64,000 nucleotides of DNA from an uncultured Actinomycetes bacterium (GCA_963833555.1 CAWHYB010000002.1:680229-744228), one strand, 5' to 3'; numbered from the stretch's first letter, positions 18,087 to 61,219 are shown. Program-made: numbers and translations. The notes: generated by a model not told the origin, from the letters alone.

Positions 18087-18124
18087 TACACCTCGCGGGA
18101 AGGACGAGTTATAGCCATGGCGCG

Positions 18125-36612: not shown

Positions 36613-37128
36613 TCATGTGACAGGCTCAGCTCTAGTTTTCTCACCATTGGAATATTCTTCAAGACGCTGACGCGCCCGGCTCAGCCGGCTCTTGACCGTG
36701 CCAACCGGGCAATTGCAAACGGCGGCGGCCTCCTCGTAGGACAGCCCCTCGGCCGCGATCAGCACAATCGCCTCTCGCTGCTCGGGGGCAAGCCGGCCCA
36801 AGCTCTTCAACACATCCTGAAATTCGACATATTTCTCCTGCGTCGCCCGCAGCTCCAGATAACTCGGGTCGACTTCGTCCAGCGGAGCGGTCTGGTGATA
36901 CTTTCGGTACCTGATGCCGTTGTAGAAGCTGTTGCGCAGGATCGTGAACAGCCAGGCGCGCAAATTCGTGCCCATCTGGAACTTGTCGAGATTGGATAGA
37001 GCCTTGACGAGCGTATCCTGGACCAAGTCGTCGGAATGCTGCGCGCTTTGCGTTAGCGAAAGCGCGAACGCGCGCAGGTTCGGAATCCATTTGACCAGCT
37101 CGTCACGCAAAGCTGCGTGATCGCTCAT
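36613..37128 (-). CDS. ecfG: ECF sigma factor of the general stress response (EcfG/sigma-EcfG)
   Basis: 171 aa with sigma-70 regions 2 and 4. Co-oriented directly downstream of nepR. Confidence 0.8.
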   Translation of the reverse strand: MSDHAALRDELVKWIPNLRAFALSLTQSAQHSDDLVQDTLVKALSNLDKFQMGTNLRAWLFTILRNSFYNGIRYRKYHQTAPLDEVDPSYLELRATQEKYVEFQDVLKSLGRLAPEQREAIVLIAAEGLSYEEAAAVCNCPVGTVKSRLSRARQRLEEYSNGEKTRAEPVT

Positions 37129-37439
37129 GACCTCCGCTCCCGCTTTGCGATCTCCTCGATCAAACGAAGCATCTTTTCGGGGATCGGCTCTTTGAGAACG
37201 GTTTCGTACAACTGGACAATACCGGCGGTAAATCGCGCCTCGTCCAACTCTGCCTCCTTTGCTAGCGGCTTGGCGCGGCGCTCGCCGCTCCTTTCGTCCA
37301 GCACCTCCGCGGGCAGCGAGCGGGCACGGGCGGCCAGCCCTTGCGGGGCCGTCTCCCGGCTTTTCCGTTGCTGCTGCGTCTCCTGAGACGGGAGGAGAAC
37401 TTTCTCCTCGCTCTCGCCGGATGCGTCCATAATATCGAT
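37125..37439 (-). CDS. nepR: anti-sigma factor NepR
   Basis: C-terminal GIVQLYETVLKEPIPEKMLRLIEEI matches the NepR signature; overlaps the ecfG start. Confidence 0.7.
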   Translation of the reverse strand: MDIMDASGESEEKVLLPSQETQQQRKSRETAPQGLAARARSLPAEVLDERSGERRAKPLAKEAELDEARFTAGIVQLYETVLKEPIPEKMLRLIEEIAKRERRS

Positions 37440-37505
37440 CCTTGCCTTGGCTTGCCGGTGCCCCCGGACATTAATGGTCATGCCTAAAACGATGTTCACC
37501 CGGTG

Positions 37506-37530
37506 GAACACGTTGCGCGCACGTTTGTTG
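37506..37530 (+). promoter_or_regulatory. possible EcfG-type promoter (GGAAC ... GTT) upstream of phyR
   Basis: GGAAC at 37506-37510, with CGTT/GTT 11-17 nt downstream; spacing is ambiguous. Confidence 0.25.
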
Positions 37531-37580
37531 CAACGTGGACGCAACTATGTCGCGGCAATAGTTTAGGGGGTGTGACTCCA

Positions 37581-38408
37581 ATGGCAGTCTCTCAATCCAT
37601 CGCTCCTCATCTGCCATCGCTGCGCCGGTTCGCCCGGGCTCTTTCGGGGTCGCAGGAGAGTGGGGACGCCTATGTCGTGGCGCTGCTCGAAGCGCTGGCC
37701 GAAGACCCTTCCATGTTTCCGCTGGATATGGACCCCAAGATCGCGCTTTACAGGCTGTTCCTGAAGATCTGGAACTCCGTGGACGCGAACGCCTTCCCGG
37801 CCTTCAGGCTTGAGCAGACGGAAGCCATGCGGAGCCTGCAATCGCTGACGCCCGAGCCGAGGCAGGCGTTTTTGCTCCTGTCGGTCGAAGGCTTCGACGC
37901 CAGGGCAATCGCCCAGATTCTGGACACGAGCGAAGCCGATGCCGTGGCACTGGTGGCGGCGGCCGATCGAGAAATCGCGAGCCAGATCGAGCCGGCGGAC
38001 ATCCTGATCATCGAGGACGAGCCGATAACCGCGTCGCACCTCGAAGACCTGGTGCTGAGTTCCGGCCACCGCGTCACGGGGATCGCGCGCACGCATCACG
38101 ACGCTCTGAAGCTTGCGCATAAGCGGCGGCCCACGCTGATCTTGTCGGATATCCAGCTTGCGGACGGCAGTTCTGGCGTCGAGGCGGTGAACGAGATTTT
38201 GGCCGGGCTTGAGGTTCCCGTCATTTTCGTAACCGGCCATCCCGAGATGCTGCTGACCGGGGCGAAGCCGGAGCCGGCCTTCCTGATCGCCAAGCCGTTC
38301 AGCGCCGAAACGGTCAAGGCGGTGATCGGGCAGGCGCTGTTCTTCGAGGTCCGGTCGCGCGGGAAAGGCAGCCGCCGGGAGGCGGAGGCGCGCGGCGCTA
38401 GGGTTTGA
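37581..38408 (+). CDS. phyR: anti-anti-sigma response regulator PhyR (sigma-like N-terminus plus receiver domain)
   Basis: MAVSQSIAPHLPSLRRFARALSGSQESGDAYV... ECF-like domain and a C-terminal receiver domain (ILIIEDEP...). Divergent from nepR-ecfG. Confidence 0.85.
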   Translation: MAVSQSIAPHLPSLRRFARALSGSQESGDAYVVALLEALAEDPSMFPLDMDPKIALYRLFLKIWNSVDANAFPAFRLEQTEAMRSLQSLTPEPRQAFLLLSVEGFDARAIAQILDTSEADAVALVAAADREIASQIEPADILIIEDEPITASHLEDLVLSSGHRVTGIARTHHDALKLAHKRRPTLILSDIQLADGSSGVEAVNEILAGLEVPVIFVTGHPEMLLTGAKPEPAFLIAKPFSAETVKAVIGQALFFEVRSRGKGSRREAEARGARV

Positions 38409-44929: not shown

Positions 44930-47419
44930 CTACCTGCAGAACGCCGATGGCGTGAGGCAGGTGTTGGTATCGGCGTAGAAGTCGTACCTGACACCGGCGG
45001 TTATGAGCAGCTCGTTCTCGGTGGTCTGAGTTGTGCCCTGGCTGCGCCATGTCATCCGGTCGCCGACTTCGATCTCAAGATTCAAGTCTTTCCGCACGAA
45101 GTAGCTGATGAGCAGCGACGGTATGACCGTGTACTCGCTCCAGCCCCCGGTCTTGCCCGTGGTGTAGGTGCCGATAAGATGCGGCTGAATGCGCACGTCC
45201 TGTATAACCGGATAGCGCACGGAGAGGTCCGCCGCGAAGTTGTTGGACTCTTTCAGGTCCGAGTAGCGGAAGGCCGCGGAGTACATATCGCCTTCCGTAA
45301 GCAAGGAAGACCCAATCAGCTGCACGCCATAGTAGAACTCATCGCCGCTGTCAGGCATACCGGCGACCGTATAGGAAGCGATCGTTCCGTTGATGTGCGC
45401 CTGCGTGACATCGAGATTGAGCTGTACCTTGTCGGTGATTTGCCGCGTATAGCCGAGGTTGGCCGATTGGTAGGTCGCCGTCCTGTCTATGGCCATCTGC
45501 AGCAGGTCTGCCTGGCTGTAGGTCGATCTCTTCAGGAGATCGTAAATCGTGGTGAAGGCCTGGCCCTGCAAAGCGTTCCAGGTCGTCAAATATGGAGCCA
45601 TCCGGTAATCGGCGCCCGCGCGGATGATCGATTTGTCGGGCAGCGTCCAGGTGCCGGTGAAGATCGCCGCGTCGAGCTTGTCGAAATGGACGTCGTAATC
45701 GACGGTCAGGAACGCGGACTTGGTCATGTCGTTGTACCGGAATTCCGCACCAACCGCCTGCCGGTCGACGATGTTGCGGTCCATCTGCTCGATGGCATAG
45801 ACATCCGCGTCAAGCCCCTTCCATGGACCGAAGTTCAACGCGCCACCGTAGAAGTAACGGTCGTCCTTGAAAGGCGTGTCGGTGCGGTAATCCACCGGGG
45901 AGCCGCCGAACGTGGAGAAGCCGAATATCGGGTCGTACTGATAGGTGAAGACCGCGCCGTCGAACCGGCCGAGGATGCCGTCGCTGTTGCGGATTTGGCG
46001 GCCCAGCCGGAAGGTCGTCCCCCAATCCTTGACGGAGGTGTCGAGATAGAGCGAGCTGATCCCGAACAGGTCCTCGGCCGTCGGCTGGATGCGGTATTCA
46101 TCCGTTCCCGAGAAGCGGAACTTCATCTTTACGTTGCCATCGCCCCATTGCGCGGTCGTGTCGAAGCTCGACAGGACCTCGTTCTGGTGGGTCTGAAGAT
46201 CTTCTCTTGTCTTGTTCAAATTGAGCGCTTGGGTGGGATCGCGGTTGACGGAGTAGCTGTCGTCCCGGATGTAGGTTGAGGAGACGCTTCCAGACACGGA
46301 GCCATAAGAGGGCCGCGCGGCGGGCTCCCCGGCAGGTGCTGGCGTCCCATCCGCGTTGACGGGCGCGGAAGCTGCATTGCGCAGTCTCTCCGCGGGAGCG
46401 GCCTCGGCCGTCTCGATGGCCAGCAGCCGCTGACGCACACCATCGTTTCCGTCACCCTTGGGGTAGCGGCGAAGATAATCCTCGTAAACCTCCTTGGCCG
46501 CCCCGGTTTGCCTGGCCTTTTGATAGGCTACGCCTAACAGCTCGCGGGCCTCCGGTGTCCGCCGGTTCTCGGGCTGCTGCGCCGCCTTTTTCAGTTGTGC
46601 GATGGCAGTCTCGAACTTGTTCGCCTTCAGGTCGGCGCGCGCCTGGGTTATGAGCACGGCGGTTGCCGCCTCGGCCGGGCTTGCGCTGCTGCCGGCGCTT
46701 GCCGGAGCCTGAGCCTGAGCCGAATCGGCGGCCGGCTGGCTTGTCTGCTCGGGCGTCACCTCGCTGGGGCCAATGACCGCGGCATTCTTGGTTTCCGGAA
46801 CATCCGGAATAGGCGCGGGGGCTGGCGCGCGCTTGGTCATCGCGCTTTCCGGGCGTGCTTGCGGTATCGACGTTGTCGTGTCGCCCCAAGCGCTGTCCCC
46901 GGCCAAAGTGGGATACACGGGCTTGCAAGGCCTGCCGTTCTTCGGGTCGCCAACCGAAACGACAAGGCTTTGGAAATCCGTTCCGCCGGCCGCGCTGAAA
47001 TGCACGTTCCGGTCGAACACGATGGTAAGCGACGGGCTTTCGGCGATGCGCGCCTCGTATTCGATGGCCTTGATGGCTGTATGCCGGTCCTGCGGAGGCC
47101 GCAGCGCTTCCCTCTCGAACCCGCCTTGGATGACGAACTCGCGCGGGTCGACCGGCCGGAAAAGGATGCGAAGCTGATTTCCCGAGGTTACGGGAAAGTG
47201 GCTGTCGTACCGGATGCGGAAGTTGAAGTTGATCTTATAGATCGAGCAGCCGCCACCGGAGGCGATCTGGTAGCCGGACAGTACGCGATTGGTGACAGGT
47301 TGGGCGTGCGATACGCCAGACCAGCCAGCCAATAGGCATGCTGTCAACGCAGCACTCCCGAGCATGCCTGGAAATGAGTGTGTACGCCTTTGCATCATGT
47401 CCCTCTTCATATTGGGCAT
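44930..47419 (-). CDS. outer-membrane protein: signal peptide, Ala/Pro/Gln-rich linker plus TPR-like segment, C-terminal about 480-aa predicted beta-barrel
   Basis: 829 aa. Alternating amphipathic strands rich in Y/F/G/T/D in the C-terminal half. Directly downstream of the multihaem cytochrome gene on the same strand. Confidence 0.55.
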   Translation of the reverse strand: MPNMKRDMMQRRTHSFPGMLGSAALTACLLAGWSGVSHAQPVTNRVLSGYQIASGGGCSIYKINFNFRIRYDSHFPVTSGNQLRILFRPVDPREFVIQGGFEREALRPPQDRHTAIKAIEYEARIAESPSLTIVFDRNVHFSAAGGTDFQSLVVSVGDPKNGRPCKPVYPTLAGDSAWGDTTTSIPQARPESAMTKRAPAPAPIPDVPETKNAAVIGPSEVTPEQTSQPAADSAQAQAPASAGSSASPAEAATAVLITQARADLKANKFETAIAQLKKAAQQPENRRTPEARELLGVAYQKARQTGAAKEVYEDYLRRYPKGDGNDGVRQRLLAIETAEAAPAERLRNAASAPVNADGTPAPAGEPAARPSYGSVSGSVSSTYIRDDSYSVNRDPTQALNLNKTREDLQTHQNEVLSSFDTTAQWGDGNVKMKFRFSGTDEYRIQPTAEDLFGISSLYLDTSVKDWGTTFRLGRQIRNSDGILGRFDGAVFTYQYDPIFGFSTFGGSPVDYRTDTPFKDDRYFYGGALNFGPWKGLDADVYAIEQMDRNIVDRQAVGAEFRYNDMTKSAFLTVDYDVHFDKLDAAIFTGTWTLPDKSIIRAGADYRMAPYLTTWNALQGQAFTTIYDLLKRSTYSQADLLQMAIDRTATYQSANLGYTRQITDKVQLNLDVTQAHINGTIASYTVAGMPDSGDEFYYGVQLIGSSLLTEGDMYSAAFRYSDLKESNNFAADLSVRYPVIQDVRIQPHLIGTYTTGKTGGWSEYTVIPSLLISYFVRKDLNLEIEVGDRMTWRSQGTTQTTENELLITAGVRYDFYADTNTCLTPSAFCR

Positions 47420-47640
47420 TCGCTGCGTGGAGTTTTGTTGGAGCAGTCACAAGCATTCCCTGGATCATCCGCCGGATCCCGGGTGAAGCTCTGCGTGACA
47501 GCTCTGTGTGGGCAGAGTGCCGCGCAGTTGTAGCCTTGTTGCCGTGGGGCCTGAAGGTCTTCGTGCCCAGGTAGGTGCCGGAGTGGCAGGTCATGCAGTT
47601 CGAGGTCGAGAGCACGACATTGAGTGCGCGTGCCCGTGCA

Positions 47641-50600
47641 TTACCCATCGTGGCGGTGGCAAATCCGCCGCTGATCGTGCTCTTGTGGCAGACGTCGCAG
47701 GACACGGTCTCCGGTTGGCACGTGGTTGGAGACCTCCTTCATCGCGCCGTTGGTTCCGGTGCCATGGCAGCTGTAGCAGTTGCCCGAGGCCGAGGCCGGA
47801 TGGCTGTACGACGCGCCAGCGAAGCTCGTGAAGGTCTTGTGGCAGTCGTAGCAGTTCTCGTTAGTGGGCGTGGTCGTGACGTGGCTCGTTGGCTTAACCA
47901 CGACGCCCAGATAGCTTCCCATGTGGCAGGTGGTGCAGTTGGAGGCCGTCGAGACGCCCAGCGCGGTATGGCCCGCCGAGCCCATGGTGAAGGTGGCGAA
48001 CCCGCCGATGTTTTTGCTCGTGTGGCAAGCGTCGCAGGACACCGAGCCGGTCGGGACGTGCTTGGAAACCTCCATCATCGCACCGTTCTTTCCGGTGCCG
48101 TGGCAGCTATAGCAGGTGCCCGACGTCACGCCCGAGTGATTGTAGGTGGCGCCGGCGAAGCTCGTGAAGCTGCTGTGGCAACCGGAAGCCGAGCAGTTCT
48201 GATTGGTTGGGCTCGTCGTCACGTGGGTCGACGGCTTCACCACGACTCCCAGGTAGCTCCCCATGTGACAGGTCGTGCAGGTCGAGGTCATGGTGACGCC
48301 GAGCGCGCTATGTCCGGTGGACCCCATCGTAAAGGTGGCAAACCCGCCAACGCTTGTGCTGGTGTGGCAGGCATCGCAAGACACCGAGCCGGTTGGGACG
48401 TGGGTGGAGACCTCCTTCATCGCGCCGCCCGATCCAGTGCCGTGGCAGGTGTAACACTGGCCGGACGAACTGGTGGTGTGGGTGTAGGTTGCGCCAGAGA
48501 AGCTCGTGAAGCTGGTGTGGCAGCCCGAAGCCGAGCAGTTCTGGTTCGCCGGCGTCGTCGCGATGTGGGTCGAAGGCTTCACCATGACGCCGAGATAGCT
48601 TCCAATATGGCAGGAGGTGCAATTCGAGGTCATGCTGACGCCGAGCGCGGTATGGCCGGCAGTCCCCATCGAGAAGGTGGCAAAGCCGCCGGTGGATGTG
48701 CTCGTGTGGCAGGCGTCGCAGGTGGTGGTCCCGGTGGGGACGTGGGTGGAGACTTCCTTCATCGCGCCGCCCGAACCGGTGCCGTGGCAGGTGTAGCATT
48801 GGCCGGACGAGCTGGTGGTGTGGGTGTAGGTTGCACCCGCGAAGCTGGCGAAGCTGCTGTGGCACCCCGAAGCCGAGCAGTTCTGGTTCGCCGGGGTGGT
48901 CGCAACGTGGGTCGAAGGCTTCGCCACGACGCCCAAGTAGCTCGCCGTCTGATGGCAGGAGGTGCATGTCGAGGTCATGCTGACGCCGAGCGCGGTATGG
49001 CCGGCAGTCCCCATCGAGAAGGTGGCAAAGCCGCCCGTGTTCGTGTTCGTGTGGCAAGTGTCGCAGGACACCGAGCCGGTGGGAACGTGGGTTGAGACTT
49101 CCTTCATCGCGCCGCCCGAACCGGTGCCATGGCAGGTGTAGCATTGGCCGGTTGAGCTGGTGGTGTGGGTGTAGGCCGTGCCGGAGAAGCTCGTGAAGCC
49201 GCTGTGGCAGCCCGAAGCCGAGCAGTTCTGGTTCGCCGGAGTGGTCGTGACGTGGGTCGAAGGCTTCACCACGACGCCGAGATAGCTTCCCATATGGCAG
49301 CTTGTGCAATCCGAGGTGGAACTCACCCCGAGCGCCGTGTGCCCGGCCGTTCCCATCGTGAAGGTCGCGAAGCCGCCGACGGCAGTGCTCTTATGGCAAG
49401 CGTCGCAGGTCGTCGCGCCGGTTGGAACGTGGGTTGAGACTTCCTTCATCGCGCCGCCCGATCCGGTGCCGTGGCAGGTGTAGCACTGGCCGGACGAGCT
49501 GGTGGTGTGGGTGTAGGTCGTACCGGCGAAGCTCGTGAAGCTGGTGTGGCAGCCCGAAGCCGAGCAGTTCTGGTTCGCCGGGGTCGTCGCGATGTGGGTC
49601 GAAGGCTTCACCATGACGCCGAGATAGCTTCCAATATGGCAGGAGGTGCAATCCGAGGTCATGGCTGACGCCGAGCGCGCTATGTCCGCTGGACCCCATC
49701 GAGAAGGTGGCAAAGCCGCCGGTGTTTGTGCTCGTGTGGCAGGCGTCGCAGGTGGTGGTCCCGGTGGGGACGTGGGTTGAGACTTCCTTCATCGCGCCGC
49801 CCGAACCGGTGCCATGGCAGGTGTAGCATTGGCCGGACGAGCTGGTGGTGTGGGTGTAGGTTGCGCCTGCGAAGCTCGCGAAGCTGCTATGGCAACCGGA
49901 GTGCGGAGCAATTCTGGTTCGCCGGACTGGTCGCAACGTGGGTCGAAGGCTTCACCACGACGCCGAGATAGCTTCCTATGTGGCAGGAGGTGCAATTCGA
50001 GGTCATGGTGACGCCGAGCGCCGTATGACCGGCAGTCCCCATCGCGAAGGTGGCAAAGCCGCCAGTGTTCGTGTTCGTATGGCAGGCGTCGCAGGTCACC
50101 GCGCCGGTCGGAACGTGGTTGGAGACTTCCTTCATCGCGCCGCCCGAACCGGTGCCGTGGCAGGTGTAGCATTGGCCGGTTGAGCTGGTGGTGTGGGTGT
50201 AGGCTCGTGCCGGAGAAGCTCGTGAAGCCGCTGTGGCAGCCCGAAGCCGAGCAATTCTGGTTCGCCGGAGTGGTCGTGACGTGGGTCGAAGGCTTCACCA
50301 CGACGCCGAGATAAGTGCCCATGTGGCAGCTCGTGCAGTCCGAGGTGGAGCTTACGCCAAGCGCCGTGTGGCCGGCCGACCCCATCGTGAAGGTGGCGAA
50401 GCCGCCGACGGCAGTGCTCTTGTGGCAGGCGTCGCAAGTCACCGTTCCGGTTGGAACGTGGCTGGCGTTCATTTGCATGGCGCCGCCCACACCGGTGCCG
50501 TGGCAGCTATAGCACTGTCCCGACGAGTTGGTTGAATGGGCGAAGGCCGCACCGGCGAAGCTCACATAGCTCCGGTGGCAGCTCACGCAATCCGCCTGGC

Positions 50601-51009
50601 CGATCGCGACGTGGGTAGCCGGCTTGGAGACCGGAGTGACGCCGTAGAATGTCTGTCCGTTGTGGCAGGCCGCGCAATTCGAGGTGATGCCCGCATGGTT
50701 CATCGGCGCGCTGGCGAAGGTCACCGCGTTTCTGTGACAGGTGTCGCAGGCTGTCGTCTGGGCCGGAATGTGATTGGCGGGCTTGCCTGGCGCGAGCGTG
50801 CCGTTGTGGCAGGCGACGCACTGCCGGGGCGTTCCCTGCAGCCGGCCATTGACGTGGCAGGTCACGCATTCGACGGTTATATGAGTGCCCGTCAGCGGAA
50901 AGCCCGTCTTGGAGTGATCGAAATGCGCGGTTCCTTGAGCCAGTGCAGGAACTGCCATGGCAATCAGAATGATGGCGCAAATGCCGCCGATCCAGCCAAA
51001 TCTATTCAT
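47641..51009 (-). pseudogene. giant multihaem c-type cytochrome (about 1120 aa, about 35-40 CX2CH/CX4CH motifs) built from about seven 114-aa tandem repeats; 2 apparent frameshifts (about 49660, about 49860)
   Basis: Signal peptide MNRFGWIGGICAIILIAMAVPALAQG. Repeat unit contains CDACH, CTSCH, CSASGCH and CYTCH. Frames 49789-51009, 49391-49936 and 47641-49713 are collinear. Confidence 0.75.
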
Positions 51010-51707
51010 GTGTCCCCTCGCGCAATGCAGCTCAGGCTCAATCTTGAGCCGAACGCGCCTCGGGGGGATAACGGGCTACTCCGCGCGATAATCCGTAGGC
51101 CTGATGTTTCTTTAGGAAATTTTAGCGTTTTGCTACAATAGGTTGCGCGTCACGCCCGGAATGTTACCCATGGTTGTGGCGTAAGCTCCAAGCTGCCCGC
51201 GAGAAAAGCGGTTCCGCCTCCGCTAATTCAAAAGAAACCTATTGGCCTGCCTATTTCCACCCGCCCTTCAGGTGTGTGCGGCGAGGTAAGAGCAGAGGAC
51301 GGGCGGCTTGCAGCAGGCCGCCCGTCCGTTTCCGCCGTTAGCGGGGGCTGCGGCGTGCACGTAAAACGTGCGACGGGCATGTTCCATCCCGGAAGCGGCC
51401 ATTTTCTTGTGCGGATTGATTTCTGGAAGCTTTTCAGCGGCCCGCATGTGGAACTGGGCGGGAAAAGGAAGCGGCAGGCGGCACCTCGAGGTTGTCCGCC
51501 TGCCTGTGCCGCTGTGGGGTAGCAGCAAGGACCAAAACGGGCCTGAAATGAAAATAATCCAGAAAAAGCCAAAAAAAATCAGCATGGCTTAAGCTCGCAA
51601 ATTTTGTCAGGAATGTGCGCCGGACAAAAATTCTCCATTATTTGGCTGCTGCAGGGATTAATGCACGGTCTGCACCGTTATCGCCAACAGTCCAAGGGGG
51701 CTCATTA

Positions 51708-52237
51708 GTGACAAGCGATCCGCGGCAAGGAATAGTCGAGCTTTTGCCCCGGCTACGCCGCTTCTCCTATGCCTTAACGGGCGACCCCGAGAAAGGAGAC
51801 GATCTGGTGCAGGAAGGTTGCTTGCGCGCTTTTGCCCGCCTCGATCAGTGGCAGCCAGGTACGCGACTTGATAGCTGGATGTTCCGAATCATTCATAACA
51901 TCTGGATCGATCAGAAGCGGGCCTCGAAAGTGCGCGGCGCTGTAGTGGACCTCGACGACGCGCCGGAGCTGATGGGGATGGATGGCCGGGATGTCGTTGA
52001 GCGCCGCTTGACCCTGAACCGGGTGCTCGAAGCGATGGCGGAGCTGCCGCAAGAGCACCGGGAGTTGATCGCTCTAGTTAGTATCGAAGGTGTTTCCTAT
52101 CAGGAAGCGGCTACGATTTTGGAAATTCCAGATTGGTACCGTTACAAGCCGGCTTGTGCGCGCGCGGCGTGCTCTCCATGCCATTGCCGTTGAAGGTGTT
52201 CAGAAGGTGGAAGGCGAAAATAATGCTGTCCGATGAA
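51708..52237 (+). CDS. ECF sigma-70 family factor (+1 indel near 52128 in region 4)
   Basis: GTG 51708 after AAGGGGG. Region 2 (DDLVQEGCLRAFARL...WMFRIIHN) is intact. Region 4 is restored as EIPIGTVTSRLVRARRAL by removing one G. Confidence 0.65.
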
Positions 52238-53023
52238 GTACTGATGGCATATGCCGACGGTCAGCTCGATGCCGGTGAACGCGCGAGGCTGAGAAAGCTG
52301 ATCGCGCAGGATCCGGAGGCCAGCGCCCGCCTTGAGGTCTTTGAGGCAACGGGGCAAGACTTGGCTTCCGTGTTCGACGAGCACATGAATTCGCCGTTGC
52401 CCGAGAAACTCAGCCGCCTTGCGCTTTACGCTCAGCCCCTTCCGGTTAAAAGGTCTAGCCTCGGCCAGGTCGCGGACGCCCTCCGGAGCTTCGTCCGGCC
52501 AGCCCATCCCTTTGGATTGGCCGCTGCTTCGGCCGCCATGCTGATCGCCGGGATCGGCGCCGGCTGGCTCCTGCATGGCGGCGTTGGCGAAAGCGGCTCT
52601 CCCATGAGCGATCTTGTTCAGGTGGAAAGCGATGGCCGCACCGTTGCCCGCGGGCCTCTCAGCATGGCCCTGGACAACTCGCAGAGCGGGAGGGAGACAA
52701 TCCTCCCTTTCGCTGCGGGCAAGGTTCTGAGAGTGGCAGTCAAGCTGTCGTTCCGCAACCATGCCCAAGATTATTGCCGGCAGTACGAAGCTGGGTTGGC
52801 AGGCTCAGAAAATTTTGGCGGCATCGCCTGCAACTCGAACGGCCAGTGGAACATAAAGCTTCAGGCGCAACTCGCCCCGGCGCATCCGTCAGCCGGAAGG
52901 ACAGCGCCGGCCGGCACTGAGAGTTCGGCCCTGGAAGCGGCTGTCATGTCCTGGATCGACGGCGACGCCCTCGATCAGCGGGATGAGGACGCGATGATCC
53001 TCAAAGGCTGGAAAGAGCACTGA
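52223..53023 (+). CDS. putative anti-sigma factor (membrane-spanning)
   Basis: MLSDEVLMAYADGQLDAGERARL N-terminus typical of anti-sigma factors, one TM (AAASAAMLIAGIGAGWLL). Start overlaps the sigma-factor stop. Confidence 0.55.
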   Translation: MLSDEVLMAYADGQLDAGERARLRKLIAQDPEASARLEVFEATGQDLASVFDEHMNSPLPEKLSRLALYAQPLPVKRSSLGQVADALRSFVRPAHPFGLAAASAAMLIAGIGAGWLLHGGVGESGSPMSDLVQVESDGRTVARGPLSMALDNSQSGRETILPFAAGKVLRVAVKLSFRNHAQDYCRQYEAGLAGSENFGGIACNSNGQWNIKLQAQLAPAHPSAGRTAPAGTESSALEAAVMSWIDGDALDQRDEDAMILKGWKEH

Positions 53024-53300: not shown

Positions 53301-55291
53301 TTAGCGGCTGCCGGCGTCCAGTTTCGCGACCTCGCTTGCATTCCCCTGGCAGGATGGCGGAGCCTGCAAAAGCCCCCTGCCGTAAATCGAATTGCGGCCT
53401 AGGGGGCCGAGATGGGTGATGTTTACACGTTCGAGGAGGCTCTCCTTGGAAGAGCGCAGCACGTCTGGCGGATAGACCGCCAGGACGCCTGTAACGAAAG
53501 GCGAGGCGAACGACGTGCCGGAGCGGTAACCCTCCCGCGCTTCCGGCCATGCCGTCCAGATATCCACTCCAGGCGCCGCGATATCGATATGCGCGCCGCG
53601 ATTGGCGTAGGGGTAGTTCCTCATGTCCTTGGTGACCGCCGTCACGGCAATTACTTGCGGATAAGCGGCCGGGTAGGCCGGCTCGGCCGCCGGTCCCTCG
53701 TTTCCCGCCGCAGCCGTAAAAACCAATCCCCTGGCGCTCAGAGCCTCGATTTTTCTCTGTACAAGATCGTCCCGCGGTCCTGAGAAGCTCATATTTACGA
53801 GCCTGACCCCGGAATCCGACATCCAGTCGAGGGCTTTCATGAAGGAGACGGTATCGGTGACCGGGTCGCCGCCCTCATCGGCGTAGAAAATGCTCGCCGC
53901 GTGGTAGGTAGCCTCCGGAGCGAGGCCGGGAGTGCCGCTATCGGGCCGGCCCGCCAGCAATGCCAGCACTCCAGTACCATGCCAAATGCTGGCGGCGCTC
54001 TTGCCCGCGGGCAGGAAAGCCCTCTGCGTAATTTTCTGGTTCTTGAACGCGGGGTGCTGCAGGTCGAAGCCAGTGTCGATGACGCCGATCTTCACGTTTC
54101 GCGCGCAGGCGGAATAACGATCGTTCCATTGGATCGCTTGTTGTGCGTAACAGCGGTCCCCGCCGCATTTCTTGCCGCCGAGAACGGCAATGCTCGCGGC
54201 GTGGCCCTCTCCATCTTGTTTCATGGCCGGCTGATAAAGCCGGTAAATGTTATTGTGCTGGAAATGCTCCCCGGGCAGGTTTTGCCTGCAAGAGCCTCAT
54301 CCCTTGCGCGGGGTCCATTCCGGGCGGAAGCGTCAGGACGGTGAAGGGGTCTGGCCCGAGCCCATGTCCACCCCCCGGCCCATGTCCGCCTCCAGGCCCA
54401 TGTCCACCCCCTGGACCTTGTCCGCCTCCAGGCCCTTGTCCTGCTCCGCCGACCTGAAATCCGAGTGCGCGGGCGCGGGCAGCCCCATCAGGGCTCAGAT
54501 TGGCGGCAAGCACCTCGGTACGGGAATAAGAGCGCGGATCGGGTGCGATGGGCATGCCGCTTCCGCCGGGCGTTCGGGAATTGCCGCTCTTTACGGGTGC
54601 CGGGGACTTGTCGCCCTTTACGGGCGTCCAGCCCTTTGCTGGATCGCGGCCCGCGCCCTCTCCCGCACCTTTTGCCTCAGGGGAGTGTTCCGCCTCCTTG
54701 GTACCCGTATGGGGACCGTAATTGTCCTTTAGCAAGTTTTCCCAGGTCTTGCTGTCCTTGCCAACGTCCAGCCGGAGTTCCTTGGGCAAGCCCTTTAGCT
54801 CAGGTTGCGGCAGCCCGACCGAGGGGGGCTTGCCATCGCTTTGCGGGTGGGCGCTGCCTACGCCGGAGTAGGTGTATCCGCTGCCGCTGCTTCCGTAGCC
54901 AGTGTATCCGCCGCCGCTTCCATAACCAGAGTATCCGGTGCCGGCTCCATAGCCCGTGTATCCGTCGCCGCCGCGCTGGCCGCCGCCGTCTCCGCCGCCC
55001 GAGCCCGAGTAACCGCCACCACCACTGCCGCCTCCAGAGCTTTCCCCTCCGCCGCTAGAGCTGGTCCCGCCGCTGGTTCGCCGCCTCCGGAGCTTTCCCC
55101 TCCGCCGCTAGAGCTGGTCCCGCCGCTGTGCTCGCTGCTGTGGTGGCCATCGGCAAAGGCGGGTGAAATGGGAGCGGCCTCCCAGGCATAGTCGATATAG
55201 CCGGCGCGCGCGGCAAGGAACGCAGCCAGGAGCAGCGCGAGCGCGCTCCCGGTTGAGAGCGAGAACTTCGGCGGTAATTCTGGCCTCAATG
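53301..55291 (-). pseudogene. secreted S8 (subtilisin-like) peptidase with long Gly/Ser/Tyr-rich and GPGGGH-repeat N-terminal region; frameshifts and a 50-bp tandem duplication
   Basis: Catalytic motifs VIDTGFD, HGTGVL and GTSFASPFVTG lie in 53301-54224. Upstream frames encode GQGPGGGQGPGGGHGPGGGH and GYSGYGSGGGYTGYG segments. Direct repeat at 55038-55076 and 55088-55126. Confidence 0.6.
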
Positions 55292-55733: not shown

Positions 55734-57082
55734 TTACCTGAACGACTTGGTGTTGTGGCACTTCTCGCAGGCCCTGCCGAAACTGCCGCCGTGTGCGTCG
55801 TCGTTCGCATGGCAGCCGTAGCAGGTGTCCGGCACGGAAATCTTGCCCTCGCTTTTCTCGCGATGGCAGCTCGCGCAAGACAAGCCGCTATGCGCGCCAG
55901 TAAGCGGGAAATTTGTCTGCTTGGCGTGGTCGAAGCGCCACCGGCTCCAGCCGTTCGGCGAATGGCACGACGCGCAAGCGTTGCCAAGCGTGCCTTGATG
56001 GTGCTCGTCCTTGTGGCAGCTTGAGCATGCGGAGGGCGCGTCCTTGAAGGACGGCGACTTGTGGCATTGCTCGCAGGGAACGACGGCGTGTTTTCCAAGC
56101 AGCGGAAAGCGCGTGAGATCGTGATCGTAGGCGACCTTCTTACGCCAGGCGTTCTCGTTGTGGCACTGCTGGCAGTTCTGGCCGAGCTGGCCCTTATGCG
56201 CGTCGTCCTTCTTGTGGCAGGAGATGCAAGTCATCCCGAGCTTGTCCTTGTACAGGTCGCCCGTGTGGCAGGCCTCGCACTTCAGGGGCAGCATGCGCGC
56301 CGCGCAGCGGAAATTTGGTCTTCGAGTGATTGAAGCGGACGGTCTTCCACTTGGTGCTCTCGTGGCAGGACTCGCACTTCGCGCCGTACTTGCCCTGATG
56401 GACGTCCTGAAGCTGATGGCAGGATGAGCACGCGAGCGGCACGCCCTTATATTTCTCGTTGGGGTGGCAGGCGGCGCAAGTCACCTTCTCGTGCCCGCCC
56501 GTCAGCGGGAATTTGGTCTTCGAGTGGTCGAAGGTGCGGACCTTGGACCAGCTTTCCTCGCTGTGGCAGCTCTGGCAGTTTTCGCCGAGGCGGCCCTTAT
56601 GCTTGTCGTGGCTCTTGTGGCAGCCGATACATTGGTTCGGCGCGTTCCTGAACTTTACATTCGGCTTGTGGCAGTTGTCGCACGCAGGCTCCTTGTGGCC
56701 GCCAACGAGCGGAAAATTCGTCAGTGCGTGATTGAAGGTTTCCTTGTCGAGCTGAACGATGTCGGCGGTCCGGCCCTTGTGATCCGTGTGGCAGACGGTG
56801 CAATTGGGCTTGACGGCATCGGGGCGCTTGCCATGAAGGCCGCGCCCAAGATCGCGGTCTTTGGCAATATCCTTGTGGCAGGCGAGGCAAAGCCGGGACT
56901 GCGAGGTTTTGGTGAACGAACTCGTGGCAATTCGAGCACTCCTTTTCGAGCTTCGCATGCCCTTGCACGAGTTCGCCGGGCATGACGAGTTTCTCGAAAA
57001 TGTTCTGAGCGCCCGCCGTCGAGGCCGCGGCCAGGACAAGGAAAGGCACGGCCAAAAGGCGTAGCAGGAAGCGGGCTCTCAC
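55734..57082 (-). pseudogene. multihaem c-type cytochrome with paired CXXCH motifs (about 12 haems), 2 frameshifts
   Basis: Signal peptide (V)RARFLLRLLAVPFLVLAAASTAGA. Repeated F.H..T.FPL.G.H....C..CH modules. Frames 56597-57625, 56194-57039 and 55734-56294. Confidence 0.7.
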
Positions 57083-57104
57083 AGCGCGGCACCTAATGGG
57101 AGCG

Positions 57105-58000
57105 GCGTAGAGGTGAACCGCGATCACATGCAGGATCGCTGTCAGCACGAGCAGGAAGAACAAGGGCATATGCAGCACATGCCACAGGGCGAACATGCGG
57201 TCGTACACGCCGAACCGCGCGGCCTTGTTAACGGCGGCGAAATAGATCGAAAGGTGTCCCCTGACGAGATTGAGCTTCTTGCGCCGCGTTCTCCATCCCC
57301 AGCCTCGCCGCTTGCCCTCCACCTCGATTGCCGCCTTCACTTCCTGGCATAGGCGCCGCCTGACATTCCGCCAGCGCCAGCCGAGGGCAAAAAACGCCCA
57401 AAGACTGGCAAGGAAGCTTGAGTGCCTGACCAGGACGCGGGCCTCGAATTTTTCAAGCTCGGATACGAGCCGGCCCGAATCCTCATAGTCGCCGCCAAGC
57501 GCGCGCTTCATGAAATCCGCGTCGCCCAGCATTTCCTTGATCTCGCCCTTGGTGCCGTACAGGCCCTTATGGATCTTGGCGAACAGATACCGCCCGATGA
57601 TCCCGCTCGCCACAATCGTCAGCATGAAGAACAGCGCGACGGAGGCATTGAGCGAATGGAGTTTCCGTGAAATATTTGGCCCGGAAGTTCGAGTGAAAGA
57701 CGATCAGCACGGGCCGACAATGCCGAGAAACATGTGCGAGCGGAACCAGGTGGGCACCTTGCCGAGGCTTCGAAGGAAGCGCGCGCGCTTGCGCAGCGGA
57801 TAAAGCAAAAGGACGAGCATCATCAGCGAGCCAACGATGCCCAGCCAGTAGCCGAGCCCGGTGTCGGCGCTGATATATTCTTCGTCGCGATTGATCCAGC
57901 CGAGATAGAGCGCGGCTATCGACAGCCGCGGTGAACAGGAGGGTGCCAGCCCCCGAGATCGTCTTGCTGAAATAATGCGAAAAGGCGGCGGCATTCACGG
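57105..58000 (-). pseudogene. polytopic membrane protein, possibly a b-type cytochrome partner of the downstream multihaem cytochrome; frameshifted
   Basis: TM helices carry conserved His residues (FRSHMFLGIVG, FALWHVLHMPLFFLLVLTAILHVIAVHL). Three collinear frames. Confidence 0.35.
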
Positions 58001-58434
58001 CAATCCGGCGCGGGCTGCCCTTCGCTCTTGGGCTTGCTCCACGGGCTGGGCGTGTTGCTCCCGCACGAAGGTCAAGGCCGGCTTGGTTTGACATCGTTCC
58101 CCCGGTTCAAGATTGGTGCCATTAGGAAACCACGATTGGCGTGACTCAAGAGGCAACTCTGCCGTGGCGGAGCCGGACGAAGCGGCACAAAGCGGGCGCT
58201 TTTGTGACAGCCATACTCAAGTGTTTGTTAGCCACAGCTATCCGGAAGCCCGTTCGAGAAAAAAGGGTTAACGCCGTGGATTAAAACCCTCGCGGCTTCG
58301 TTATAGTGTGGGGTTAGGGTGTAATAGCGTGCCTACCAGCATTTGCGCTTATACACCCGGTAGACAGCGGCGCAGGTTGAACGGGCAGGTGCTGGGGTTC
58401 CGTCCGCCAGGCTAAGAGGGCATTTTTCTTAATA

Positions 58435-59739
58435 ATGGAAATAGATTACTTGGCATTTGCCTACGCAGTTCCCTTCCTGGTTATCTGGCTCCTCTACACG
58501 GGCTGGCGGCGCCGCTCCGATGCGCGCACCCTGGAGGCGAAAAAGCACGCGATAGAGCTGGGCTTACATGAACCGGCTTCGCTTCATCCAGTTTTCGACC
58601 ATGGCAAGTGCATGGGCTGCGGCTCGTGCGTTTCGGCATGCCCCGAGGGCGACATCATCGGGCTTGTACGCGGCAAGGCTGAACTCATCGACGGGTCCGA
58701 GTGCATCGGCCATGGCGCTTGCCGCGCGGCCTGCCCATACGATGCCATCACGCTGGTCTTCGGCACGGAAGCCCGCGGGGTGGATATCCCCCACGTCAGC
58801 GAGACTTTCGAAACCAACGTTCCGGGCATCTTCATCGCGGGCGAGCTTGGCGGCATGGGCCTGGTCCGCAATGCCACGGAGCAAGGCCGGCAAGCGATGG
58901 AATCCATTCGCAAGCTCGGCGGTTCCGGCCAGAAAGACGTTCTCGATGTGCTTATTGTAGGCAGCGGGCCAGCGGGAATCGCTGCCAGCTTGGCGGCCAA
59001 GGCACATAAGATGCGTTACCTGACTGTTGAGCAGGACAGCCTTGGCGGAACGGTCGCGCATTTTCCGCGCCGCAAGATCGTGATGACGCAGCCAGCCGAG
59101 CTGCCGCTGGTCGGCAAGGTCAAGTTCACGGAGGTCCTGAAAGAGGATCTCCTCGCCTTCTGGGCGGGCGTCGTCAAGCAGCACCAGCTCAGAATCCGCT
59201 TTGGCGAGCGCGTGGACGGCATAAAGAAAAATGGGCAGGGCTTTGAGGTGCAAACCACGCGCGGCGCCTACGCAACCCGCGCGGTCCTGCTCGCAATCGG
59301 GCGGCGCGGGACGCCGCGCAAGCTGGAGGTGCCGGGCGAAGAGCAGCCCAAGGTCGTTTATCGCTTCATCGATCCCGAGCAATACGCCGGGCAGCATGTG
59401 CTCGTCGTGGGCGGCGGCGACAGCGCGCTGGAGGCCGCTGGCACCATCGCCGCGGAAACGGACGCAACGGTGACGCTTTCCTACCGCTCGGAAGCCTTCT
59501 CGCGCGCCAAGCCGAAAAACCGCGACCGCGTCGACAAAGCCGTGAAGGAGGGCAAGCTCAAGCTGATGCTCAAGTCGAAGGTGATCGAGATCGGCCAAAA
59601 TTCGGTGGAACTTGAATGGCAGGGTAAGCGGCAGCAGCTCCAGAACGATGCTATAATCGTCTGCGCGGGCGGTATTCTGCCTACCAACTTTCTGAAGTCC
59701 ATCGGCATCGAGGTCGAAACCAAGCATGGCACGGTTTAA
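58435..59739 (+). CDS. 4Fe-4S ferredoxin-domain plus FAD/NAD(P)-binding pyridine-nucleotide-disulfide-type oxidoreductase with N-terminal TM anchor
   Basis: CMGCGSCVSACP and CIGHGACRAACP cluster motifs, then LIVGSGPAGIAASL and VVGGGDSALEAA Rossmann motifs. Confidence 0.7.
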   Translation: MEIDYLAFAYAVPFLVIWLLYTGWRRRSDARTLEAKKHAIELGLHEPASLHPVFDHGKCMGCGSCVSACPEGDIIGLVRGKAELIDGSECIGHGACRAACPYDAITLVFGTEARGVDIPHVSETFETNVPGIFIAGELGGMGLVRNATEQGRQAMESIRKLGGSGQKDVLDVLIVGSGPAGIAASLAAKAHKMRYLTVEQDSLGGTVAHFPRRKIVMTQPAELPLVGKVKFTEVLKEDLLAFWAGVVKQHQLRIRFGERVDGIKKNGQGFEVQTTRGAYATRAVLLAIGRRGTPRKLEVPGEEQPKVVYRFIDPEQYAGQHVLVVGGGDSALEAAGTIAAETDATVTLSYRSEAFSRAKPKNRDRVDKAVKEGKLKLMLKSKVIEIGQNSVELEWQGKRQQLQNDAIIVCAGGILPTNFLKSIGIEVETKHGTV

Positions 59740-61219
59740 CAGAAACCGCCTTCTCCTCTTCGTTTCCTGCCTCGCAATTCCGGCCATGCCGGCCTTCGAG
59801 GCGCATGCGCAAAGCACGCGGGGCAATTCCGCCGTCGATTCCTCGGTGCGAACCGGGGCGTTCTCGCAAGCCGCCGCCCTCTTGGAGACGCAAGCCAAGG
59901 CCGGAAGCGCGGACGCGCAATACGAGCTTGGCGCGCTTTACCGGATCGGGCGCGGGGTGGAGCAGAACGACCAGGCAGCCTTCCACTGGATGAAGGAAGC
60001 CGCGGCTAACGGCCACGTCCGCGCGCAATATAGCCTCGCGACGATGTATCTCACGGGGCGCGGCACGGCCGTTGACGCCGGCGCGGCGGAGATGTGGGCC
60101 AAACGCGCGGGCGAGAAGGGCCATGCGGAAGCTTCGGCCTTGCTCGCCCGTATCGCCGCCAAGCAGGCAGCGCCCAAGGAGACAAAGGAAGCGCCCGGCT
60201 GGAAGGCGACCGTCACCGGACCGTCCGGCCCAGCGCCTGCCATTCCCGCAAACATTCCAAACGAGCCGCGCCTGATCCTGGACGCGGCCCGCCGCTCCAA
60301 TGTCGAGGCGGTACGCAAGCTGGCCTCCAACCGCGCCAGCCTCGAAGCCCGCGACGAGGATGGCAACACGGCCCTGGCCCTGGCCGCTGCCTTGGGAAAT
60401 GCCGCTGTCCTCGATGCCTTGCTCGGGGCGGGCGCGAATGTCGAAACCCGCAACAACACGCAGGAAACGCCGCTGATGATCGCCGCGGCTAATGGCCGCG
60501 AGCAGGCGGTCGAGCTGCTGGCGGCAAAACGCGCGGCGCTCAACGCCGCCCGCCCGGATCAGGCAACGCCGCTGACGCTTGCGCTGCATCGCTGCCATGA
60601 GAAAGCCGTCGCCATGCTGCTGGCAAAGGGCGCCAATCCGAACCTCGGCGGAGAGGCGGAAGGTGGCCCTCTTTCCATGGCGAGCCGCAAGTGCAACGGG
60701 CGCGTGGTTCAGGCGCTAATCGAGCGCGGTGCCGATATCAACAAGCCCGACGCCTCCGGCAGGACCCCATTGTGGTTCGCCGCGGACCGGGAGAATCTGG
60801 ATGCGATCGACGCGCTCTTGAAGCGGAGCGCCTCGCTGCCCCTGGCGGATAAGAACGGAATGACGCCGTTCTTGCGCGCGCTGGAACAGGGCCACGTCGA
60901 AGCCGGCATGCGCTTTTTTGCGCGCGGCGCCGACGTTAATCTGGCAACCGCCTCCGGCAACACGCCGCTGATGCTCGCCGCGCGGCTTGGCTCGCTTCCG
61001 CTGATCCAGGCATTGCTGCAAGCGGGGGCCAAGATCGACGCCCGCAACAATTTCGGCAACACGGCCCTGATGATCGCGGCTAGCGAAGGGCGCGCGGATG
61101 CGGCTCGCGCGCTGGTGGCTGGCGGCGCCGACAAGAGCCTTCGCAACAAAAAGCGCGAAAGGGCCGCGGACGCAGCCAGCGCCGCGGGGCACGCGGATAT
61201 CGCGGACGCGCTGCGCTGA
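59726..61219 (+). CDS. secreted Sel1-repeat / ankyrin-repeat protein
   Basis: Signal peptide; Sel1-like AQYELGALYRIGRGVEQN repeats; at least 7 ankyrin repeats (DGNTALALAAALGN...). Confidence 0.75.
   Translation: MARFNRNRLLLFVSCLAIPAMPAFEAHAQSTRGNSAVDSSVRTGAFSQAAALLETQAKAGSADAQYELGALYRIGRGVEQNDQAAFHWMKEAAANGHVRAQYSLATMYLTGRGTAVDAGAAEMWAKRAGEKGHAEASALLARIAAKQAAPKETKEAPGWKATVTGPSGPAPAIPANIPNEPRLILDAARRSNVEAVRKLASNRASLEARDEDGNTALALAAALGNAAVLDALLGAGANVETRNNTQETPLMIAAANGREQAVELLAAKRAALNAARPDQATPLTLALHRCHEKAVAMLLAKGANPNLGGEAEGGPLSMASRKCNGRVVQALIERGADINKPDASGRTPLWFAADRENLDAIDALLKRSASLPLADKNGMTPFLRALEQGHVEAGMRFFARGADVNLATASGNTPLMLAARLGSLPLIQALLQAGAKIDARNNFGNTALMIAASEGRADAARALVAGGADKSLRNKKRERAADAASAAGHADIADALR

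Follow-up and report, generated by a model that had tools for sequence, protein, structure and literature searches.

A PCC3-type multihaem cytochrome cluster with a candidate ECF sigma regulon of its own in an uncultured member of the Hyphomicrobiales

The 64,000-nucleotide (nt) stretch CAWHYB010000002.1:680229-744228 of assembly GCA_963833555.1, deposited as an uncultured Actinomycetes bacterium (hereafter the window, with positions counted from its first letter), carries a gene cluster of the porin-cytochrome c complex 3 (PCC3) type. The host is an alphaproteobacterium of the order Hyphomicrobiales, near metagenome-assembled genomes (MAGs) labelled Rhodomicrobiaceae. A giant multihaem cytochrome gene and a porin gene form the outer half of the cluster, and the inner half lies at 55.7-58.1 kb of the same window. 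All four components were found, in the order inner-membrane protein, periplasmic cytochrome, extracellular cytochrome and porin, which equals the order of Slit_1446-1449 in Sideroxydans lithotrophicus ES-1. The system is a PCC3 variant carrying an extracytoplasmic function (ECF) sigma/anti-sigma/S8 protease module and is not categorically new. We consider it probable, with some reserve, that the cluster works as a trans-envelope cytochrome system in the manner proposed below and forms an ECF regulon. The four components are the following.

44930..47419, minus strand: PCC3 porin, an intact open reading frame (ORF) of 829 amino acids (aa), modelled with AlphaFold2
47465..51009, minus strand: large multihaem cytochrome (PCC3 'extracellular MHC'), defined by its reading frames after repair, its motif count and a comparison of its 3' end with a related locus
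55734..57082, minus strand: 18-haem cytochrome (PCC3 'periplasmic MHC'), with 18 CXXCH motifs, a Sec signal peptide and orthologs
57095..58094, minus strand: PCC3 inner-membrane protein, with five predicted transmembrane (TM) helices, two bis-His motifs and SGxxG

PCC3 was predicted bioinformatically by He et al. (2017; Front Microbiol 8:1584, PMC5566968) and defined there as non-homologous to MtrAB and OmbB-OmaB-OmcB. The reference examples are Slit_0867-0870 and Slit_1446-1449 of S. lithotrophicus ES-1 and a cluster of Bradyrhizobium (Agromonas) oligotrophicum S58; the carriers named include Bradyrhizobium sp. STM 3843 and S58 itself, as Agromonas (Bradyrhizobium) oligotrophica, with an 85-haem cytochrome (PMC5566968). 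The cytochromes contain internal repeats and are very rich in haem sites (medians 34 and 21), with few residues per haem, and the large one was predicted to be extracellular; the inner-membrane protein has about 300 aa and five helices, with WX3HX13H on TM3 and TM5 and SGxxG on TM4 (PMC5566968). The window shares these traits. Its barrel gene (22 strands in the model) adjoins a multihaem cytochrome gene across a 45-nt gap, its two haem-rich, repetitive cytochromes hold 41 and 18 motifs at few residues per haem, the repetitive cytochrome is rich in Thr, Ser, Ala and Gly, as in PCC3, its bis-His inner-membrane protein has the motifs on TM3, TM4 and TM5, and its porin is homologous to those of the author-assigned clusters of S58 (L076) and STM 3843 (L045; related loci are numbered with L throughout).

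The window also differs from PCC3 as described. The ECF sigma/anti-sigma/S8 module and two small-RNA-like units lie between its cytochrome genes, and a conserved, apparently co-regulated operon for an Fe-S flavoprotein and a Sel1/ankyrin protein is added; neither the module, the small-RNA-like units nor the flavoprotein operon is mentioned in He et al. (PMC5566968). The periplasmic cytochrome has 18 haems rather than 21-27, the repeat unit of the large cytochrome has four haems including a CX4CH, and the porin has 22 strands and periplasmic domains, whereas the original predictor gave up to 42 'transmembrane regions'. A first-pass annotation of 44930-53023 had already placed the porin, the cytochrome, the ECF sigma factor, the anti-sigma factor and the TPR-like stretch (tetratricopeptide repeat, TPR) where we find them. 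It had considered a distinct architecture possible, which is right in that the system is unlike the MtrB type, but the architecture is not new, as PCC3 was described in 2017 (PMC5566968). Likewise, its limits fit the outer half of the cluster but leave out the inner-membrane protein, the 18-haem cytochrome, the S8 protease and the flavoprotein operon.

The cytochrome-porin pair is strongly conserved. A scan of a genome collection yielded 80 related loci, mainly from Hyphomicrobiales (Rhodomicrobiaceae and Hyphomicrobiaceae MAGs, Bradyrhizobium including STM 3843 and S58, and Methylocystis), with some beta/gamma-type MAGs. We scored haem-motif density in the 1.5 kb before the porin gene in the 75 loci with enough flanking sequence, and a haem-rich gene directly precedes the porin gene in 74 of them, so the pairing suggested by the first-pass annotation is kept in relatives. 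The porin has full-length homologs in L076 and L045 (37% identity, E 1e-153 to 1e-158), and in both loci this homolog directly follows a giant cytochrome gene. Further upstream, an 18- or 21-haem cytochrome is present in 47/80 loci (18-haem orthologs at E<1e-100) and a protein of about 320 aa with several TM helices, the inner-membrane protein, in 43/80. Altogether, 106 porin homologs were found by word search, and a profile search gave 1,345 clusters at 50% identity with E<=1e-30.

The AlphaFold2 model of the porin was built on 74 homologs and has a mean confidence score (pLDDT) of 82 and a predicted TM-score (pTM) of 0.70. After the signal peptide, it comprises a beta-sandwich (aa 47-157), a disordered linker rich in Pro, Ala and Ser (aa 171-244), TPR-like helices (aa 248-339) and a 22-strand barrel (aa 372-817) with a helical insert (aa 613-645), followed by a C-terminal tail with two conserved Cys. 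The barrel strands are modelled at pLDDT >90. An 829-aa outer-membrane barrel protein following the cytochrome in the same direction, with a TPR-like N-terminal stretch unlike MtrB-type porins, had been suspected from the first pass, and both the intact ORF and the confidently modelled 22-strand topology agree with it. Searches of Pfam, NCBIfam and PDB sequences returned only weak TPR matches for the porin, and it did not match the MtrB/PioB model (TIGR03509) at E<=0.01. Foldseek against the PDB found generic large barrels (ushers, porins, FadL, AlgE) with TM-scores <=0.5, the best of these weak matches being the 24-strand ushers FimD and PapC, with AlgE at ranks 23 and below; MtrB, BcsC and PgaA were not prominent among them. 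With TM-scores at this level, the fold matches indicate only a 'large barrel'.

The TPR segment N-terminal to the barrel and the presence of AlgE among the generic matches (at rank 23 and below) would be compatible with an exopolysaccharide exporter of the BcsC/PgaA/AlgE type that lies beside the cytochrome gene by accident. However, searches of Pfam, NCBIfam and PDB sequences gave no family match to BcsC, PgaA or AlgK/AlgE, the strand number is 22 rather than 16-18, polysaccharide synthase genes are absent nearby, the neighbours being cytochromes and regulators, and a cytochrome neighbour is kept in 74/75 loci across Alpha- and Betaproteobacteria-type MAGs. The synteny and the family searches refute this identity, and we regard an accidental exporter as extremely improbable. 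The high-confidence BcsC/PgaA match and loss of synteny that would have spoken against a conduit were thus both absent, as there is no such similarity by sequence or fold and synteny is strong. What these proteins, FimD and PapC have in common with the porin is a large barrel joined to, or working beside, a platform of helical repeats in the periplasm; the differences are the absence of a family-level match, another strand number, a window without polysaccharide or pilus genes and a conserved cytochrome neighbour.

The large cytochrome gene spans about 3.5 kb, with an ATG at 51009, on the same strand as the porin gene and directly upstream of it. It is not a single ORF in the sequence as given. 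Three-frame translation compared with neighbouring repeats revealed frame shifts at about 50205, 49900, 49665 and 47712, each due to one inserted base, and removal of the four bases gave a continuous protein with 33 CXXCH and 7 CX4CH motifs. Several further indels of 1-2 nt lie in the 3' end (47470-47560), so that the frame is broken at five or more places in all. The end of the gene was located by alignment with L084, a short-read metagenome scaffold whose porin is 94% identical to that of the window; the stop is at about 47465, 45 nt before the porin start, and the C-terminal end reads '...C-x4-CH-x-QSFTRDPAD-stop', which adds a terminal CX4CH as the 41st motif. The giant cytochrome of the first-pass annotation is therefore present, but with 41 motifs after repair instead of about 37.

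The protein has a Sec signal peptide and a conserved N-terminal module (FDHxxTGFPLxGxH...), common to 19 cytochrome orthologs, followed by a repeat array that holds most of the motifs.

47644..50563, minus strand: tandem array in the cytochrome gene (Tandem Repeats Finder: 342-nt or 114-aa unit, 8.5 copies, 81% matches, score 3331)

Each 114-aa repeat contains CXXCH, CX4CH, CXXCH and CXXCH, hence four haems, and the whole protein has about 28 aa per haem. Over all six frames of the 64-kb window, CXXCH occurs 56 times, with 33 occurrences in the large cytochrome, 18 in the second cytochrome and 5 elsewhere; the haem motif density in the cytochrome gene is far above chance. Among related loci, the number of haem motifs in the orthologs ranges from 15 to >115. 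Differences in repeat number account for this range of sizes, whereas the N-terminal module is conserved. The cytochrome of L061 has at least 3,242 aa and 115 haem motifs and that of L049 at least 3,296 aa and 109, both running off the edge of the locus, and that of B. oligotrophicum S58 strain E20 (L076) has about 2,740 aa with 91 CXXCH by our count, where the paper reports 85 (PMC5566968).

Library searches with the large cytochrome matched Cytochrome_C7 and, weakly, the DmsE model (TIGR03508; 80.7 bits against a cut-off of 192.2). Such weak DmsE/MtrA-model matches (80.7 and 28.9 bits), together with the shared order of cytochrome then porin, are what a divergent member of the MtrAB/MtoAB/PioAB group would have to build on. 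These scores are far under the 192-bit cut-off, the cytochrome has 41 haems and not 10, the porin has no MtrB/PioB model match, its barrel has 22 strands and MtrB is missing from its fold matches; moreover, PCC3 was defined as non-homologous to MtrAB and OmbB-OmaB-OmcB (PMC5566968). Membership in this group is very improbable, and we conclude that the system is neither an MtrAB/PioAB member nor a polysaccharide exporter. The resemblance to PioAB and MtoAB noted at first pass holds for the order of the genes, but not for the porin, which lacks the TIGR03509 match and has 22 and not 26 strands.

In MtrCAB of Shewanella, MtoAB of Sideroxydans and PioAB of Rhodopseudomonas palustris TIE-1, a cytochrome gene also lies directly upstream of a barrel gene, and periplasmic and surface-side cytochromes are combined. 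Their cytochromes are decahaem proteins, and their barrel, of 26 strands, lacks periplasmic domains; they share no sequence family with the window proteins and are linked to the quinone pool by CymA-type tetrahaem proteins instead of a bis-His membrane protein. OmaB-OmbB-OmcB of Geobacter sulfurreducens is similar in being a three-part conduit of periplasmic cytochrome, porin and outer cytochrome; it differs in having a 12-haem lipoprotein as its outer cytochrome and in a porin without a TPR domain. PCC3 is stated to be non-homologous to it (PMC5566968).

The exporters BcsC, PgaA and Slam have a periplasmic N-terminal TPR region fused to a C-terminal barrel, and the window porin has the same layout of TPR, then barrel. 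It is conceivable, if rather unlikely, that the barrel is a secretion or anchoring pore through which the repeat cytochrome is extruded as a surface 'nanowire', with the TPR and beta-sandwich domains as a periplasmic loading platform. The top PDB fold matches, though weak, are the ushers FimD and PapC, and a cytochrome length that varies from 15 to >115 haems behind a constant N-terminal module fits a polymer-like substrate; the extracellular location predicted by He et al. (PMC5566968) points the same way. Against this, the TM-scores do not exceed 0.5, the usher plug and chaperone genes are absent, and surface exposure of the cytochrome is a prediction only. A pore of this kind also overlaps with the conduit explanation and does not exclude it.

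The inner half of the cluster consists of the 18-haem cytochrome and the inner-membrane protein. The gene for the former has two frame changes (about 56920 and 56289), and that for the latter at least three indels (one at about 57940, a 1-nt deletion in TM3 and a 19-nt insertion). In the window, the second WX3HX13H motif and SGIIG of the inner-membrane protein are intact, and the first motif is broken only by the 1-nt deletion. Across the family, WX3HX13H on TM3 and TM5 and SGxxG on TM4 are invariant in alignments, and a structural model puts the motifs on those helices, which suggests that the protein binds two b-type haems. A NOX/ferric-reductase-like or cytochrome-b561-like protein was considered and found unsupported, with no fold match and no ferric-reductase domain match, and a split NOX-like module was likewise unsupported by these negative fold and domain searches. 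Many related clusters have an additional gene for a CcmH/CycH-like TPR protein (for example L002 522-1802, L019, L023, L031, L042), either between the flavoprotein and inner-membrane protein genes or downstream of the porin gene. It is possibly a haem-lyase accessory factor; no homolog occurs in the 64-kb window.

Between and beyond the cytochrome genes lie the regulatory module and the flavoprotein operon.

51708..52236, plus strand: ECF sigma factor (start in the ORF list 51615), with Sigma70_r2, Sigma70_r4_2 and TIGR02937 matches
52223..53023, plus strand: anti-sigma candidate, with a predicted N-terminal anti-sigma domain, one TM helix and, on the periplasmic side, a domain of about 150 aa that includes conserved Cys
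53301..55290, minus strand: S8 subtilase of about 660-700 aa, with a signal anchor, a Gly/Ser-rich region and a C-terminal catalytic domain
58435..59739, plus strand: Fe-S flavoprotein, with a membrane anchor, a 2x[4Fe-4S] ferredoxin domain and a thioredoxin-reductase-like FAD/NAD(P) domain
59726..61219, plus strand: periplasmic Sel1/ankyrin repeat protein with a signal peptide, downstream of the flavoprotein gene

The sigma factor scores 65.8 bits with TIGR02937 (cut-off 42.9) and has regions 2 and 4 only, as an ECF sigma factor does. One inserted base at 52131 breaks region 4. The GTG at 51708, preceded by the Shine-Dalgarno sequence AAGGGGG, is a more likely start than 51615. The anti-sigma candidate has weak matches to zf-HC2 (E 0.009) and NF052375 (29 bits against a cut-off of 100); its gene is intact, overlaps the end of the sigma gene by about 11 nt and encodes a protein 78% identical to its L005 ortholog. 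The divergent pair of ECF sigma gene and anti-sigma candidate named by the first-pass annotation is in place upstream of the cytochrome gene, both genes on the plus strand. An ECF sigma homolog lies inside the cluster in 17/80 loci, and in 13 of them it immediately follows the 18-haem cytochrome gene in the same orientation; the pair is inverted in the clade of the window, and some carriers, S58 among them, lack it. This anti-sigma type occurs in 9 loci and the S8 protease in 10. The S8 gene lies between the 18-haem cytochrome and anti-sigma genes, and its frame changes at least twice (about 55068 and 54300). It co-occurs with this anti-sigma type in 9-10 loci, and its product might cleave the anti-sigma factor or process the cytochrome.

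Candidate promoters were recognised through a motif whose clade-specific GGAT -35 box became apparent only after relatives were aligned.

51070..51094, minus strand: proximal promoter candidate of the cytochrome-porin operon, GGATTA-N15-CGTTAT, about 60 nt upstream of the ATG
51365-51389, minus strand: second promoter-like site upstream of the cytochrome gene, GGAT-N17-CGTT motif
51536-51560, minus strand: third promoter-like site upstream of the cytochrome gene, GGAT-N17-CGTT motif
51655..51681, plus strand: promoter candidate of the sigma gene, GGATTA-N15-CGTTAT, 27 nt before GTG 51708, also present in L004, L005 and L007
55380..55404, minus strand: promoter candidate of the S8 gene, ECF-type motif
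58278..58302, plus strand: promoter candidate of the Fe-S flavoprotein operon, ECF-type motif with boxes conserved in L004, L005 and L007

The window contains 7 occurrences of GGAT-N17-CGTT where 2.2 are expected, none of 100 shuffles reaches 7, and 6 of the 7 occurrences are upstream of cluster genes. In the clade of the window, the -35 box is GGAT(T/A/G), and the boxes are kept while the spacers vary in four relatives (L004, L005, L007 and L008). A related motif was found in other clades: GGAAT-N16/17-CGTT lies about 230-370 nt upstream of the cytochrome N-terminal module in six loci with the sigma gene on the same strand, and across all loci it occurs 82 times, against about 22 expected, at fixed places. 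As GGAATA-N15/16-CGTT, it precedes the large cytochrome gene in 23/43 loci, compared with 5 in the wrong orientation. For the divergent flavoprotein/TPR operon the count is 18/32 (0 in the wrong orientation), and for the sigma gene 8/18. A scan of the window for sigma-70 promoters and terminators gave background level only, and the canonical EcfG pattern GGAAY-N15-18-CGTT showed no excess in the window and was absent from the intergenic regions of the cluster.

Conserved boxes, variable spacers and shared sites are the pattern expected of an autoregulated ECF regulon. They support control of the cytochrome-porin operon, the S8 gene and the flavoprotein operon by the cluster's own ECF sigma factor and imply autoregulation of the sigma gene, as judged from motif conservation. 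The ECF control proposed at first pass gains support in the same way, from a promoter motif shared by the cytochrome-porin operon and the sigma gene and a similar motif in relatives. Our literature search for ECF control of porin-cytochrome systems returned nothing relevant.

EcfG-type promoters of Alphaproteobacteria have the form GGAAC-N16/17-CGTT. The cluster sigma resembles EcfG-type factors in its PhyR_sigma2 domain match, in about 37% identity to the EcfG-like sigma at 36619-37305 of the window, and in the CGTT -10 box and spacing. It differs in the -35 box (GGATTA here and GGAATA in other clades, not GGAAC), in its partner, a membrane anti-sigma candidate of about 266 aa in place of the small soluble NepR, and in its candidate regulon, which is the cytochrome cluster itself. 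The window contains a separate general stress response locus at 35628-38405, composed of a PhyR-like regulator (37488-38405, plus strand), the EcfG-like sigma (36619-37305, minus strand) and an HWE/HisKA_2 kinase (35628-36398, minus strand). In L004, this locus directly adjoins the porin gene, whereas in the window about 6.5 kb (polA, a caspase-like peptidase and an antitoxin-like ORF) lie between them.

The two distal promoter-like sites upstream of the cytochrome gene each belong to a small-RNA-like unit.

51285..51389, minus strand: candidate small RNA B, with a promoter-like site, a two-hairpin unit of about 75 nt and a terminator-like hairpin
51455..51560, minus strand: candidate small RNA A, with a promoter-like site, a two-hairpin unit of about 75 nt with a C-rich loop and a terminator-like hairpin

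These tandem units (51285-51560, between the sigma and cytochrome genes) have 5' hairpins with the C-rich loops ACCCCACA / GCCCCCGCU, followed by a GC-rich terminator-like hairpin and a U-rich tail; the RNAs themselves would span about 51455-51528 (A) and 51285-51357 (B). Both units are found in conserved form in L004, L005, L007 and L008. In unit B, 5 of 20 pairs carry compensatory changes among 5 sequences; unit A has a fold z-score of -3.0, and its sequence is nearly invariant, so covariation is uninformative. Rfam gave sub-threshold matches only in the window, with Xoo2 for these units. Possibly they give rise to small RNAs that depend on the sigma factor, with CCCC loops that base-pair to the GGGG ribosome-binding sites of both the cytochrome gene and the sigma gene. 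The cytochrome leader (51010-51069, minus strand) contains about 50 nt that are near-invariant in five relatives, with diverging intergenic DNA on the flanks; its sequence, CCCCGAGGCGCGTTCGGCTCAAGATTGAGCCTGAGCTGCATTGCGCGAGGGGACAC and then ATG, holds a small hairpin (GGCTCAAG/TTGAGCC) and may be a translational control element.

In 26 of 28 informative loci, the flavoprotein and inner-membrane protein genes lie side by side in divergent orientation, and 16 of these 28 loci also have the Sel1/ankyrin gene. From its conserved position and the shared promoter motif, the flavoprotein is taken to be part of the PCC3 system. It hints at a connection with cytoplasmic NAD(P)H, and therefore at electrons flowing outwards.

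Taken together, these data suggest the following working of the cluster. Electrons would cross the inner membrane by way of the inner-membrane protein (about 320 aa), whose TM3 and TM5 carry the two invariant His pairs, and the 18-haem cytochrome would bridge the periplasm. The 41-haem cytochrome, as the presumed occupant of the barrel, would be threaded through the 22 strands or docked on them, and the periplasmic beta-sandwich and TPR domains of the porin would hold the partners. Assembled in this way, the cluster would conduct electrons. The single-pass anti-sigma factor would hold the sigma factor until a periplasmic signal releases it, and the freed sigma would activate the large cytochrome-porin genes, the S8 gene, the flavoprotein operon and its own gene.

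Several observations weigh against this proposal. According to the literature of 2022-2025, the function of PCC3 is a prediction in every organism; in S. lithotrophicus ES-1, both PCC3 clusters are down-regulated on Fe(II), and proteomics did not detect the extracellular PCC3 cytochrome. A search from the Burkholderiales relative P0102 returned only MAG proteins and no link to Slit_0867/Slit_1449, Sideroxydans or Leptothrix. For the inner-membrane protein, a fold search with the model found no solved haem-b protein or other fold (best E 0.6), and its profile gave nothing significant in Pfam or PDB sequences; with no fold or family match, the case for haem b binding is carried by the motifs only. 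On the regulatory side, the promoter motif was found before the inner-membrane protein/18-haem cytochrome operon in 0/32 loci, and no exact match to it was found in more distant clades. Finally, the cluster genes contain at least 13 frame-breaking indels in about 10.7 kb, which affect nearly all of them except the porin and anti-sigma genes.

Compared with about one frame break in 7 kb in the neighbouring 31.5-38.5 kb (judged against L004), this number could mean that the cluster is a decaying pseudogene remnant in its host, which we regard as quite unlikely. Two housekeeping genes of the window are split into two overlapping ORFs in different frames, namely those for class II (B12-dependent) ribonucleotide reductase (9651-13540, minus strand) and methylmalonyl-CoA mutase (62456-63999, plus strand). 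The broken cluster genes have no premature stop except one from the 1-nt deletion in the inner-membrane protein gene, and show no accelerated amino-acid change, their products being 75-88% identical to orthologs; the porin gene, the anti-sigma gene and all promoter boxes are intact. Moreover, the closest relatives are long-read MAGs, and L004 is fragmented in a like manner. Because housekeeping genes are also split, other signs of decay are absent and one of the long-read relatives is similarly fragmented, we read the indels as assembly or consensus errors occurring throughout the window. Elsewhere in the window, three paralogous genes for PMT_2-type (dolichyl-phosphate-mannose-like) glycosyltransferases lie in a row (14814-19423, plus strand), the first probably frameshifted near 15600-15750.

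The system might serve electron uptake, through oxidation of extracellular Fe(II), Mn(II) or minerals with inward flow to the inner-membrane protein and the quinone pool. Rhodomicrobiaceae include phototrophic Fe(II) oxidisers, and the closest relatives of the window are MAGs labelled as this family. In addition, neutrophilic Fe(II) oxidisers were the first organisms in which PCC3 was found, and it is frequent among Sideroxydans (PMC5566968 and later literature). However, both ES-1 clusters go down on Fe(II), many carriers are not known as Fe(II) oxidisers (Bradyrhizobium, Methylocystis, Hyphomicrobium), and a co-regulated, cytoplasm-facing Fe-S flavoprotein of the NAD(P) type fits electron export more easily. 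Uptake is therefore somewhat unlikely in our view, and we lean slightly towards outward flow, whether for electron disposal or for the reduction of extracellular acceptors.

A stronger form of the outward direction, held only tentatively and judged unlikely as a whole, is that alphaproteobacterial PCC3 is a self-contained, sigma-gated electron export system and not an iron-oxidation module. In such a system, a periplasmic signal, possibly aided by the co-regulated S8 protease, would free the EcfG-like sigma factor, which would turn on the NAD(P)H-type Fe-S flavoprotein, the giant cytochrome and the 22-strand TPR-barrel. The sigma factor would also drive the two small RNAs, and these, through their C-rich loops, could exert feedback at the GGGG ribosome-binding sites of the sigma gene and the cytochrome gene. 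Electrons would pass from cytoplasmic reductant to the bis-His membrane protein, the 18-haem cytochrome and a surface wire, the length of which (15 to >115 haems) would be tuned by repeat expansion.

In summary, the window holds a PCC3 cluster with candidate regulatory and redox additions, and PCC3 is among the most widespread predicted extracellular electron transfer systems. To our knowledge, PCC3 also includes the largest haem counts known in single proteins. Three handles offered by the locus and its relatives were absent from the literature we searched. The dedicated ECF pair and promoter motif define a candidate regulon, so removal of the anti-sigma factor could switch PCC3 on in the laboratory; the conserved Fe-S flavoprotein operon suggests a source or destination of electrons; and the confident domain model of the porin (22 strands, TPR and beta-sandwich) is a guide for work on the complex. 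If electron export were true, the role assumed for PCC3 in soil and root-associated Alphaproteobacteria would change.

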